Below are positions 8,330-11,237 of a DNA stretch of 17,352 nucleotides, piece after piece (position 1 is the first letter of the stretch; every line of letters starts with the position of its first letter). The position numbers and the translations under genes are program-made. This DNA comes from a virus (lineage: Duplodnaviria; Heunggongvirae; Uroviricota; Caudoviricetes). The notes beneath the pieces were generated by a model, which was given only the letters and a program-made list of their open reading frames with translations, made no database searches and was not told where the DNA came from. Location: IMG/VR virus record IMGVR_UViG_2728369554_000022, positions 1 through 17,352 of that record; one strand, given 5' to 3'.

Positions 8330-8752
8330 TCAATGCACTACGACAGAATCACCGGGCGACCCACCACCGCTGAAATGTGCTTTCCGGTAAACGGCCTGGA
8401 CTGCATCATCATGCGCATCAATTGCCGTACTCAACGCTTCCTGCGCCGCCAGTAATGCACGGCGTTCCAGGGTATCGAAGATGCAGAGTCGGTGACGCAG
8501 CTCGCGCGGAAGAATTGCCAGAACCGCAGGGATCAGTGTCTGAATTTTTTCCCTTTGCGCTTTCGTTTCACCTTTTAACCAACGGTGATAGATGTTCTGC
8601 TGATTATTCCAGTCCTTGCCTGGTACCAGGGGCAATTCGCCGCCCCCCTGGCGCAGATATTCTTCAGTAATTGCATTGGCTACCCATGCCTGCCCTTTTT
8701 CAGCGGCCAGGGCTAACAGCACTGATTCGATGTGCTCATGCCTGATTTTCAT
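8330..8752 (-). CDS. ydaT: YdaT-like protein (140 aa)
   Basis: ATG at 8752 with AGGAG upstream; length and position after the YdaS-like gene match the Rac ydaS-ydaT pair. Confidence 0.6.
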   Translation of the reverse strand: MKIRHEHIESVLLALAAEKGQAWVANAITEEYLRQGGGELPLVPGKDWNNQQNIYHRWLKGETKAQREKIQTLIPAVLAILPRELRHRLCIFDTLERRALLAAQEALSTAIDAHDDAVQAVYRKAHFSGGGSPGDSVVVH

Positions 8753-9011
8753 GAATCAACTCCTGTGCATTTTGTGTGTTAGCCTTACATCCAACAGGTA
8801 AACCATCGGTCGGATTCGGGTAGATATCAGGCCGGAGTTCATGAGGTGTAACCTCGAAATTCGTAGCCTCTGCGATACGCAATACCTTTTCAGGGCTTAA
8901 CTGACTACGTCCAGTAGCAACGAGGCTAATCATTGATTGCGAACAACCAGCCAGCGCGGCCAAACAAGACTGTCGTACACGATTTTTTTTCAAATATTCA
9001 TCTAATGTCAT
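8736..9011 (-). CDS. ydaS: YdaS-like Cro-type HTH regulator (91 aa)
   Basis: ATG at 9011 with AAGGTGA upstream (track start at 9038 is TTG); HTH-like segment; divergent from the repressor gene. Confidence 0.55.
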   Translation of the reverse strand: MTLDEYLKKNRVRQSCLAALAGCSQSMISLVATGRSQLSPEKVLRIAEATNFEVTPHELRPDIYPNPTDGLPVGCKANTQNAQELIHENQA

Positions 9012-9115
9012 AAGGGTCACCTTAGTAATGTTCGCCAAAATATTAACTATACTAATTTAAATGATCAATACTTATATCAGTTTGAGATTATGAGCTGTGT
9101 TCATAAGATGGTGGT
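9012..9115. promoter_or_regulatory. Divergent promoter/operator region between ydaS-like and racR-like genes
   Basis: 104-bp AT-rich intergenic region with palindrome TTATGA-gctgtgt-TCATAA (~9090-9108) and TGATCA (9064-9069). Confidence 0.4.
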
Positions 9116-9580
9116 ATGAGAAGAAAACGCGAAGAAATCGCATCGCCAGAAGCTACGCAGCGTCTACGCGGAATCTGGGATGCAAAAAAAAGAGAGCTCA
9201 AATTGACTCAGGAGCTTGCTGCCGAGCTAATGGGCTTTGAGACGCAATCTACGGTTAGCCACTATCTCAACGGAAAGGCTCCACTTAACACTGATGCGGC
9301 ATTAAAATTCGCAGTATTGCTAAGAGTTAAGCCTGAAGACTTGAGGCCTGATTTAGCTGATCTGATGAATTACGTCCGTTCCTCTGGAACTTATGACGAA
9401 AGTTTCGAAGGCGAAGGGTGGCGGATGGTTAACAAGCAACAAGCTGATTTACTGGATCTTTTTGATATCCTCCCCGAATCAGAAAAAGCAAAACTAATCG
9501 AAAGGCTTAAAGGCCAGAATGAACTCTACAAAGAAGCGTTTGAAAATATGCTGGCAGCTCAGAAACGCATAAAGAAATAG
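9116..9580 (+). CDS. racR: RacR-like prophage repressor (HTH), 154 aa
   Basis: HTH-like LTQELAAELMGFETQSTVSHYLNG; divergent from ydaS-like; followed by a strong terminator. Confidence 0.6.
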   Translation: MRRKREEIASPEATQRLRGIWDAKKRELKLTQELAAELMGFETQSTVSHYLNGKAPLNTDAALKFAVLLRVKPEDLRPDLADLMNYVRSSGTYDESFEGEGWRMVNKQQADLLDLFDILPESEKAKLIERLKGQNELYKEAFENMLAAQKRIKK

Positions 9581-9600
9581 CCCCCACTACCTCGTAACTA

Positions 9601-9626
9601 AACCGCCATCCCTGGCGGTTTTTTTG
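9601..9626 (+). terminator. Rho-independent terminator after racR
   Basis: CCGCCA-tccc-TGGCGG followed by TTTTTTT. Confidence 0.7.
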
Positions 9627-9697
9627 TCCCCTGCGCCCCCATCGCCTTACTTTTTTATCAAAAAAAACACTAAAATTTTCATTATGATAGTACATTT

Positions 9698-9728
9698 TTA
9701 TCAACAAAATGCATATTTATGTTGATCA
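9698..9728. promoter_or_regulatory. Candidate operator/promoter upstream of ydaG (early-left, PL-like position)
   Basis: Inverted repeat TTATCAACA-N13-TGTTGATCA in an AT-rich region ~90 bp upstream of ydaG. Confidence 0.3.
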
Positions 9729-9816
9729 TTAATATGAATATAACTAATATTATTGCAGAAGCAGCACGGCGCTGTAGGTTTTAGTTCCGCCACCCGGCGT
9801 TAAGGGGAGAGATAAG

Positions 9817-9951
9817 ATGGTGCATTACGAAGTAGTTCAGTATTTGATGGATTGTTGCGGTATCACTTACAACCAGGCTGTGCAGGCTTTACGCAGCAAC
9901 GACTGGGATCTCTGGCAGGCAGAAGCCTCTATCCGCAACAACAAAATGTGA
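9817..9951 (+). CDS. ydaG: YdaG-like small protein (44 aa)
   Basis: ATG at 9817 with AGGGGAGAG upstream; MVHYEVVQYLMDCCGITYNQAVQALRSNDWDLWQAEASIRNNKM; size and position match recalled Rac ydaG. Not in ORF track. Confidence 0.5.
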   Translation: MVHYEVVQYLMDCCGITYNQAVQALRSNDWDLWQAEASIRNNKM

Positions 9952-9961
9952 GGTGCGAAAA

Positions 9962-10114
9962 ATGCAAAAAATCGACCTCGGCAATAACGAATCCCTGGGG
10001 TGCGGCGTGTTCCCCAACCAGGATGGAACGTTCACTGCCATGACTTATACCAAAAGCAAGACATTCAAAACTGAAACGGGCGCACGTCGCTGGCTTGCCA
10101 GAAATACTGGCTAA
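9962..10114 (+). CDS. ydaF: YdaF-like small protein (50 aa)
   Basis: ATG at 9962 with GAGGTG upstream; MQKIDLGNNESLGCGVFPNQDGTFTAMTYTKSKTFKTETGARRWLARNTG. Not in ORF track. Confidence 0.5.
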   Translation: MQKIDLGNNESLGCGVFPNQDGTFTAMTYTKSKTFKTETGARRWLARNTG

Positions 10115-10295
10115 TCCATTATTTGGATTAATTCAATATTCTCGCTGTAGGGGTATAGCAGAAACCACCAAAGCCCGGAGGTGGTGAAATAAAACCGGGC
10201 ACAACACGAAGGCGCATTTCCGATATCCATAAAGAGTCGGTTTTGTCTGTTAAATTTAAATGGTGGGAGTGCGCCTCCGGTTGTAAATAACGACA

Positions 10296-10360
10296 TTGCT
10301 GTGTGTAGTCTTGGCGGCATCAGTTTTTTCTTGAAGTTCGGCTGATGTCCGCCCCTTTTT
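10296..10360 (+). ncRNA. DicF-like sRNA candidate with intrinsic terminator, upstream of kilR
   Basis: TTGGCGGCATCAGTTTT ... CTGATGTCCGCCCC-TTTTT; stem GGCGGCATCAG/CTGATG(T)CCGCC plus U-run; resembles recalled DicF core. Boundaries approximate. Confidence 0.45.
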
Positions 10361-10525
10361 AAAGTGAATTTTGTGATGCGGTGAATGCGGCTAAGCGCAC
10401 GCGGAACAGTTAAAAGCATCAGTGTTATGGGTGGATTATCCGGCGTTAATTGTTAACTGGTTAACGTCACCTGGAGGCACCAGGCACCGCATCAACAAAG
10501 TTCATTTGTAAAAATGGAGATAATT

Positions 10526-10747
10526 ATGATTGCACATCACTTCGGAACTGAGGAAATACCACGTCAGTGTGTGACTCCTGGCGATTATGTTCTTCATGAA
10601 GGCCGGACATATATTGCCTCGGCAAACAATATTAAAAAGCGAAAACTTTATATTCGTAACCTGACCACAAAAACATGCATTACTGACTGCATGATTAAAG
10701 TCTTCCTCGGTCGTGATGGTTTACCTGTAAAGGCGGAGTCATGGTGA
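10526..10747 (+). CDS. kilR: KilR-like cell-division inhibitor (73 aa)
   Basis: ATG at 10526 with GGAGA upstream; size and synteny with Rac kilR; sequence recognised from memory. Confidence 0.7.
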
Positions 10748-10917
10748 TGACTAAGAAAATAAAATGTGCTTACCACCTTTGCAATAAAGAAGTTGAAAAA
10801 AGCAAAAGCATTACAAAACCACTTCATTTCATGCGTGGAGTTATCCCAACGACGGAAATGAAAAAATATTGTAGTGAAATATGTGCCGAAAAAGACCAGA
10901 TGGCACACGAACTTTAA
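10747..10917 (+). CDS. ydaE: YdaE-like Cys-rich small protein (56 aa)
   Basis: ATG overlaps kilR stop (TGATG); four Cys; not in ORF track as a separate ORF. Confidence 0.6.
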   Translation: MTKKIKCAYHLCNKEVEKSKSITKPLHFMRGVIPTTEMKKYCSEICAEKDQMAHEL

Positions 10918-10991: not shown

Positions 10992-11237
10992 ATGATTACC
11001 AATTATGAAGCCACTGTTGTAACTACCGATGACATTGTTCACGAGGTTAATCTGGAAGGAAAGCGTATTGGCTACGTGATTAAAACAGAAAATAAAGAAA
11101 CCCCATTCACTGTGGTTGATATCGACGGTCCATCAGGCAACGTAAAAACACTTGATGAAGGTGTCACAAAAATGTGCCTGGTTCACATCGGAAAGAATCT
11201 GCCCGCAGAAAAAAAGCCGGATTTCTGGCAACTCTGA
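10992..11237 (+). CDS. racC: RacC-like protein (81 aa from this start)
   Basis: ATG at 10992 with AGGAGA 5 nt upstream; upstream in-frame ATGs at 10944/10953 lack an RBS. Confidence 0.55.
   Translation: MITNYEATVVTTDDIVHEVNLEGKRIGYVIKTENKETPFTVVDIDGPSGNVKTLDEGVTKMCLVHIGKNLPAEKKPDFWQL

Follow-up and report, generated by a model that had tools for sequence, protein, structure and literature searches.

What are two very small genes doing immediately behind the repressor gene of a lambdoid prophage? The question is raised by the window, a stretch of 17,352 nucleotides (nt) of viral DNA (IMG/VR record IMGVR_UViG_2728369554_000022), in which reading frames of 44 and 50 amino acids (aa) follow the terminator of the repressor gene on the same strand. 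The window is a Rac-type lambdoid prophage with its best matches in E. coli chromosomes, at 96% identity, and a first-pass annotation had placed the pair in a moron slot equivalent to that of lambda rexAB, as peptides expressed in the lysogen. Our analyses lead to a different reading. The two genes, ydaG and ydaF, are very probably the translationally coupled first cistrons of a repressor-controlled early-left operon, the counterpart in a Rac-type prophage of the operons that start at lambda PL and at the Qin dicB promoter. The following features of the window are central to this reading.

9116-9580, plus strand: prophage repressor gene, RacR/DicA-like, 154 aa, Pfam HTH_3 (expectation value (E) 6.5e-9)
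9600-9628, plus strand: intrinsic terminator of the repressor gene, a hairpin of 9 pairs (9600-9621, 5 of them G-C) followed by a T-run
9655-9728, no strand assigned: candidate left operator region, with the heptamer T(G/T)ATCAA at 9655-9661 and 9698-9704 and on the other strand at 9722-9728
9722-9750, plus strand: predicted promoter of the ydaG operon, PL-type, -35 TTGATC (9722-9727), 17-nt spacer, -10 TAATAT (9745-9750)
9757-9816, plus strand: 5' leader of ydaG, from alignments
9817-9951, plus strand: ydaG, ATG 9817 to TGA 9951, 44 aa (phrog_14709, E 2.7e-36)
9962-10114, plus strand: ydaF, ATG 9962 to TAA 10114, 50 aa (Pfam DUF1391, E 1.4e-28)
9040-9068, minus strand: predicted ydaS promoter, the PR equivalent, -35 TTGATC (complement of 9063-9068), 17-nt spacer, -10 TAATAT (complement of 9040-9045)

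The pair does sit just beyond the repressor terminator, as had been annotated; the terminator, also found as inverted repeat I7, starts 20 nt past the repressor stop codon, and the ydaG promoter lies about 100 nt farther on, with a predicted transcription start near 9757. Over the 30 nt that span the -35 and the -10, each read toward its own gene, the ydaG and ydaS promoters agree at 24 positions, with the same hexamers at the same spacing, and both fall within a 44-nt inverted repeat (I1, 73% complementary) that pairs 9034-9077, in the repressor/ydaS intergenic region, with 9713-9756 upstream of ydaG. In the listed relatives of the same immunity, both hexamers of the ydaG promoter are invariant. 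The window thus has a repressor-adjacent promoter that shares sequence with the repressor/cro region, and two similar predicted promoters facing outward from a repressor gene have the geometry of lambda PR and PL. The genes downstream agree with a PL-type arrangement, with kilR, recE and recT on the same strand within the window and ralR, xisR and intR in addition in the closest annotated relative.

The K-12 Rac prophage (ydaG b1355 and ydaF b4527, the 'ydaFG' operon) shows how such a promoter may be controlled. The operator of its repressor RacR was defined by footprinting as (T/A)TAGGC-n3-GCCTA(T/A) (PMC9638921). In 13 kb of K-12 Rac searched for WTAGGC-n3-GCCTAW with one mismatch allowed, we found four copies against 0.06 expected, two of them at racR-ydaS and two between racR and ydaG. 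The latter two (L002 8630-8644 and 8655-8669) fall on a TTGACA-17-TATAGT promoter of the ydaG strand, directly next to its -35 and overlapping its -10. These consensus sites look like a left operator of Rac, and as such they may be new, the footprinting paper containing no mention of a left operator at the ydaG promoter (PMC9638921). RNA sequencing after depletion of RacR found ydaF and ydaG up about 40-fold, with kilR, ydaE and racC also up (PMC6765115, PMC11014345); it follows that in the K-12 lysogen the two genes are repressed. Expression in the lysogen, as first proposed for the window's genes, runs counter to this behavior of their homologs and by analogy seems unlikely.

How far does the analogy with K-12 carry? 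YdaG and YdaF of the window are 93% (over 44 aa) and 90% identical to their K-12 homologs, the spacing of the two genes and the last ~35 nt of the leader are alike, and downstream KilS, kilR, ydaE, racC and recE match. The repressor, promoter and operators are of another type, the leader measures 60 nt in the window and about 190 nt in K-12, and homology begins only ~35 nt ahead of the ydaG ATG, with unrelated repressor, terminator and promoter upstream of that point. Further, K-12 Rac has a sieB gene that is missing from the window, and the YdaF C-terminus reads ARNTG in the window and EKHTVS in K-12.

Other ydaG loci vary upstream of the leader too. The common leader and ydaG are found behind at least seven immunity modules, all of them composed of ydaT, a cro-like gene and a repressor. 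Their repressors range from DicA-like and RacR-like proteins to one of 238 aa that we call cI-like because its relatives match Peptidase_S24. In several modules a sigma-70 promoter ahead of ydaG can be recognized by eye. In five of the seven types (K-12, DicA, cI-S24, L019 and that of the window), an extended, type-specific and mostly palindromic sequence is shared by the ydaG promoter and the type's own repressor/cro region: 23 of 24 nt, including the -35, in the K-12 type; 17 of 17 nt in the DicA type; the element GTAAC-n5-GTTAC in the cI-like type; and AAACACA-n4-TGTGTT in L019. Only short matches in the -10 region were found in L006, and L023 gave no sequence shared between its ydaG promoter and its repressor/cro region. 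Among 5426 complete E. coli genomes, the window's promoter region is present in 40 and ydaG in 1484, so that the promoter appears to travel with the repressor, as expected of an operator-bearing promoter. As judged from these comparisons, the ydaG promoter is part of the immunity module and not of ydaG. What is retained throughout is the end of the leader (about 9781-9816, TTAGTTCCGCCACCCGGCGTTAAGGGGAGAGATAAG), which is conserved across immunity types and in the ydfA leader of Qin.

A related observation concerns four deleted Rac variants (L011, L040, L042 and L047), in which truncated lysis-gene or other sequence is joined to the ydaG leader about 20 nt upstream of ydaG (near locus position 2480). 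Their right-hand junction lies at the identical nucleotide (...|ACCCGGCGTTAAGGGG). Because this single junction is combined with three different left-hand partners, it may mark a hot spot of recombination, or a sequence that forms a module boundary, ahead of ydaG.

In conjunction with the literature on K-12 and Qin, from which repressor binding and repression at the window's promoter are inferred, we propose the following model. In the lysogen, the 154-aa repressor would bind operators that overlap the -35 hexamer and would silence ydaG and ydaF. Upon induction or infection, YdaG and YdaF would be the first products of leftward transcription, which would then continue from ydaF into KilS, kilR, ydaE, racC and recE, with no terminator intervening before KilS. 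The downstream part of this putative transcription unit comprises the following features.

10258-10360, plus strand: KilS, a DicF-like small RNA that aligns to K-12 kilS (b4833); Rfam DicF, 41.1 bits, below the gathering score of 48
10526-10747, plus strand: kilR, FtsZ inhibitor gene (phrog_294 Kil, E 2.6e-36), in the same order as in annotated relatives
10747-10917, plus strand: ydaE, 56 aa, zinc-binding
10992-11237, plus strand: racC-like gene
from 11368, plus strand: recE

Several findings weigh against this model. The ydaG promoter matches 8 of 12 consensus positions, which put it under the threshold of a generic promoter scan, where it was missed; its start site, like repressor binding and expression in the window's immunity type, is a prediction. 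The operators of the window's repressor are likewise candidates. The first-pass annotation had described an AT-rich upstream region belonging to the pair, with an inverted repeat; the region contains the predicted promoter, and the repeat is present (TTATCAACA at 9698-9706 and TGTTGATCA at 9720-9728, 7 perfect pairs), its right arm overlapping the -35 hexamer of the ydaG promoter, so that it is probably included in the operators of our model. A 7-bp inverted repeat arises in 27% of dinucleotide shuffles of the 191-nt region, however, and is compatible with chance; close relatives carry a single change in one or the other arm. We therefore rejected the repeat as a stand-alone signal and retain it as a possible operator within the candidate region. 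The heptamer T(G/T)ATCAA, which may be an operator half-site, occurs six times in the window. Four of these copies fall in the two regulatory regions, where local shuffles would give 0.17, but the motif was picked post hoc, after seeing the data, and is only a lead. Downstream, the terminator-like 3' hairpin of KilS (10313-10353, followed by CCUUUUU; -31.6 kcal/mol) could stop much of the transcription. In K-12, KilS can have its own promoter (PMC8175672), and kilR therefore need not rely solely on read-through from the ydaG promoter.

Could the pair nonetheless be a moron, an autonomous cassette placed like lambda rexAB, with a promoter active in the lysogen and a role in superinfection exclusion or regulation? 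Its place directly behind the repressor terminator and its own promoter region are what such a cassette would have, ydaG is variably present among related operons and is missing from those of Qin type, and in many relatives the exclusion gene sieB fills the neighboring slot. Yet the promoter is immunity-specific and resembles that of ydaS, and in K-12 it bears RacR operators and the two genes are derepressed when RacR falls. A moron would be bracketed by a promoter and a terminator of its own; here the promoter is the early-left promoter of the operon and no terminator was found between ydaF and KilS in the window, where the first such hairpin is the 3' end of KilS itself. A search with PADLOC gave no significant match, none at all for YdaG and only AbiEi (E 0.047) for YdaF, and many phage types have ydaF as the constant gene at the first position behind the repressor. 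Taken together, these data make a rexAB-like moron an improbable reading. The optional insert at this position, so far as the compared loci tell, is sieB and not ydaG-ydaF: K-12 carries it between ydaF and KilS, on the strand opposite to theirs, the window lacks it (10115-10257, compared with L002 7504-8160), and of the ydaG loci whose flanks were long enough to tell, 49 have it and 23 do not. The C-terminus of YdaF (EKHTVS or ARNTG/C) appears to co-vary with the presence of sieB.

The reading of ydaG-ydaF as the head of an early-left operon is supported further by the Qin prophage, which shares with the window the layout of repressor, promoter, DUF1391 gene, DicF-type small RNA and cell-division inhibitor. 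The order in Qin is dicA, dicB promoter, ydfA (the DUF1391 gene), ydfB, ydfC, dicF and dicB; DicA represses the promoter in front of ydfA, from which ydfABC-dicF-dicB is transcribed (PMC5069750). The ydfA leader is homologous to that of ydaG (AGTTCCGC[C/T]ACCC..GCGTTAAGGGGA), and one ydaG locus, L055, carries the DicA-type promoter itself. Unlike the window, Qin lacks ydaG, ydfA following straight after the leader; its partner genes are ydfB and ydfC, and its division inhibitor is DicB rather than KilR. The likeness to lambda lies in the mirror-image promoters with shared operators that flank the repressor gene and in a left operon (N ... cIII kil gam bet exo xis int) that holds kil, recombination genes and xis-int. 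Compared with lambda, the window lacks rexAB between repressor and left promoter and lacks an N gene; its first genes are ydaG and ydaF, and no nut-like structure was detected in its leader.

Does the same layout extend beyond Rac and Qin? A scan of genome contigs for DUF1391 returned 18 loci, mostly from Escherichia, and the survey was made on IMG/VR. There, the nearest upstream open reading frames (ORFs) on the same strand at 78 further loci yielded 56 distinct proteins, among which 38 match HTH_3, 8 a CI-repressor helix-turn-helix family and 8 Peptidase_S24, in overlapping counts. The phage records mEp460, Serratia OS31 and vB_EcoS-683R6 have the same layout as the window. In the closest annotated relative of the window the gene order is identical, with ydaT and a cro-like regulator occupying the minus strand and the repressor the plus strand, followed by a 44-aa hypothetical protein, ydaF (DUF1391), kilR, ydaE, a racC-like gene, recE, recT, ralR, xisR and intR. 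The context of the two genes is thereby corrected: the slot after the repressor in Rac- and Qin-type prophages is the start of a repressed early-left operon and not a lysogenic-conversion cassette, and experiments on the pair are therefore better directed at induction or infection than at the resting lysogen. Many lambdoid prophages of enterobacteria have DUF1391 as their conserved first early gene, whose function is a question of modest weight. The genes and their operon were already known as ydaG and ydaF of Rac-type prophages, with uncharacterized functions, and in that respect the finding is ordinary; what is possibly new is the K-12 left operator at the ydaG promoter, together with the weak fold leads described below.

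Both ORFs and both ribosome-binding sites (RBSs) of the first-pass annotation are present. The RBS of ydaG (AAGGGGAG, 9802-9809) lies 7 nt ahead of its ATG, and that of ydaF (GAGGTG, 9950-9955) lies 6 nt ahead and overlaps the ydaG stop codon; an alternative ydaF start at GTG 9953 gives a 53-aa frame that is also open. Since the gap between the genes is only 10 nt, the arrangement suggests translational coupling, and a spacing of 10-11 nt is kept across alleles. The naming of the genes as ydaG- and ydaF-like is borne out by the identities to K-12 given above and by the match of YdaF to DUF1391 (PF07151; 98.7 bits, cutoff 27.3, with residues 2-48 of 50 aligned), which establishes its membership in that family; it also matches phrog_751 (E 3.6e-34).

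One might suppose that frames this short are untranslated, and that the region is only a 5' untranslated leader for KilS and kilR, a notion that YdaG, with its relatives confined to Escherichia, could encourage. The comparison of alleles argues otherwise. Eighty ydaG loci from IMG/VR, together with the window, K-12 and strain JNU, gave 21 ydaG and 35 ydaF nucleotide alleles, with a mean ratio of nonsynonymous to synonymous polymorphism (pN/pS) of 0.10 for ydaG and 0.18 for ydaF and with most variable sites at third codon positions. A check of conservation and substitution pattern, which had been proposed along with the original annotation, thus points to purifying selection on both genes. Given in addition the strong RBSs, the conserved intergenic spacing and the retention of DUF1391 in phages of Serratia, Pantoea and Salicola, where identity is 55-65%, an untranslated leader is so improbable that it can practically be set aside, and the pattern of variation marks ydaG and ydaF as genuine genes.

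The distribution of the two families is different in scope. The ydaG gene, where it occurs in E. coli, is almost always single-copy, and a word-indexed protein search placed YdaG relatives in 18 clusters, all from Escherichia. An exhaustive HMMER search of 1.84 billion representative proteins found nothing credible outside this genus; a few long, multi-stretch proteins that it matched were judged spurious.

Two tiny coupled genes behind a promoter that contains an inverted repeat could also call to mind a small toxin-antitoxin or addiction module, autoregulated through the repeat. Against this stand the occurrence of a ydaF homolog without ydaG (ydfA of Qin) and the finding that a Qin operon without dicF and dicB, which retains ydfA, does not inhibit growth when induced (PMC5069750). 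Neither protein has a significant match to a toxin-antitoxin or defense family in Pfam, PADLOC or the NCBI family library, and the repeat, as noted, is not significant. We regard such a module as very improbable, and favor two early genes under the control of the prophage repressor.

What might the products of these early genes do? The AlphaFold2 model of YdaF, built on a shallow alignment of 15 sequences, consists of four beta-strands and a C-terminal helix (predicted local distance difference test score (pLDDT) 85) and superimposes on AP2/ERF domains with 36-37 residues aligned at 1.1-1.6 A and 22-28% identity. Foldseek listed AtERF1 and the N-terminal domains of the lambda and Tn916 integrases (1gcc, 1kjk, 1b69, 1bb8), all at E >= 0.6 and none significant. 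Pfam CedA is matched by 2 of 22 DUF1391 family members (E 0.096), hhalign aligns DUF1391 with CedA over 20 columns (P 0.0011, probability 20%), and tblastn found no CedA homologs in phage genomes. The structures of AP2, integrase N-terminal and CedA domains have been treated as one family of small beta-sheet DNA-binding domains (PMC8614690), and CedA binds the sigma-70 holoenzyme of RNA polymerase (PMC10803263). The predicted topology of YdaF, an antiparallel sheet packed on a C-terminal helix, weakly resembles that of these domains, which would make nucleic-acid binding a putative property of YdaF. From these weak signals the most likely role of YdaF is that of a small early regulator that binds nucleic acid or RNA polymerase, a suggestion that we make with low confidence. 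Several phage records (ON470595.1, ON470614.1 and others) label DUF1391 genes as 'head-DNA stabilization protein D'. The head decoration protein D was the sole match of YdaF among solved structures searched by sequence, at a chance-level E of 0.15, and was rejected; the label looks like an annotation error that probably stems from this similarity.

It is tempting to go one step further and to ask whether YdaF, possibly with YdaG, is an analog of lambda N that acts on RNA polymerase and lets leftward transcripts extend past the DicF/KilS terminator, so that kilR or dicB and the recombination genes are reached. YdaF occupies the first gene position of a PL operon, a terminator-like hairpin separates it from kilR, and the weak resemblance to CedA would supply a polymerase contact. 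Among 20 sampled loci, 5 have a DicF match on the same strand downstream of DUF1391, and when the 3 kb behind DUF1391 were matched to PHROG families at 20 loci, no N-family PHROG was among the 25 commonest of the 64 obtained. On the other hand, YdaF has no arginine-rich motif and neither protein has an arginine-rich N-terminus, and the more distant loci with DUF1391, those of Serratia or Pantoea type, lack DicF. The leader shows no stable RNA of a nut-, put- or riboswitch-like kind, 9757-9830 folding no better than shuffled sequence (z +0.98); Rfam gave no match in it, and no nut (boxA/boxB) hairpin was found. The idea is a speculative sub-hypothesis, and we consider it unlikely. A broader version, in which DUF1391 is a minimal CedA/AP2-like binder of RNA polymerase or nucleic acid that serves N-less Rac- and Qin-type phages as an immediate-early regulator, for example in read-through of the DicF/KilS terminator to kilR or dicB and the recombination genes, and in which YdaG is its Escherichia-specific UBA-like partner, is a conjecture to which we would give little weight.

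YdaG itself passes the cutoff of Pfam UBA_4 (PF14555) marginally, at 23.7 bits against 21.8 (E 4.1e-5), and falls under the cutoffs of UBA_8 and UBA_HYPK. Its AlphaFold2 model is a three-helix bundle (helices at residues 4-14, 18-26 and 30-42; pLDDT 74), for which the top Foldseek matches are the UBA-like domain of HypK (E 1.9), EF-Ts and the UBA domain of USP5, none of them significant; a sequence search against solved structures returned nothing for YdaG. With low confidence, we suggest that YdaG, encoded by an insertion specific to Escherichia between ydaF and the shared leader and predicted to be a UBA-like three-helix bundle, is most likely a protein-binding accessory factor. In a continuous-evolution experiment in yeast, E. 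coli YdaG acquired four mutations that turned it into an inhibitor of N-degron degradation by Ubr1, the wild-type protein being inactive (bioRxiv 10.1101/2025.03.22.644768). Beside the UBA-like match this result is a coincidence, and not evidence on the native function.

Upstream of the ydaG operon, the remaining features of the immunity region are as follows.

8330-8752, minus strand: ydaT
8736-9011, minus strand: ydaS-like (cro-like) gene
9082-9109, plus strand: candidate promoter of the repressor gene, TTGAGA-16-TAAGAT, from the promoter scan

The repressor matches the NCBIfam DicA C-terminal family at E 7.9e-9, under the family cutoff. Because its candidate promoter ends 7 nt ahead of ATG 9116, the repressor is probably translated from a leaderless mRNA, as is lambda cI when transcribed from PRM; the racR mRNA of K-12 is leaderless too (PMC9638921). 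The start regions of the repressor gene and of ydaG share an exact 11-nt direct repeat, ATAAGATGGTG at 9103-9113 and 9812-9822, which may be due to chance.

Three minor observations concern the downstream genes. The KilS hairpin of the JNU relative is more DicF-like than that of the window. A match to the small RNA STnc100 (Rfam, 43.8 bits, below the threshold of 47) at 10344-10533 on the plus strand spans the 5' untranslated region of kilR. Finally, YdaE reaches the gathering score of the Rtr1/RPAP2 zinc-finger family in Pfam, with 33.2 bits against 33.

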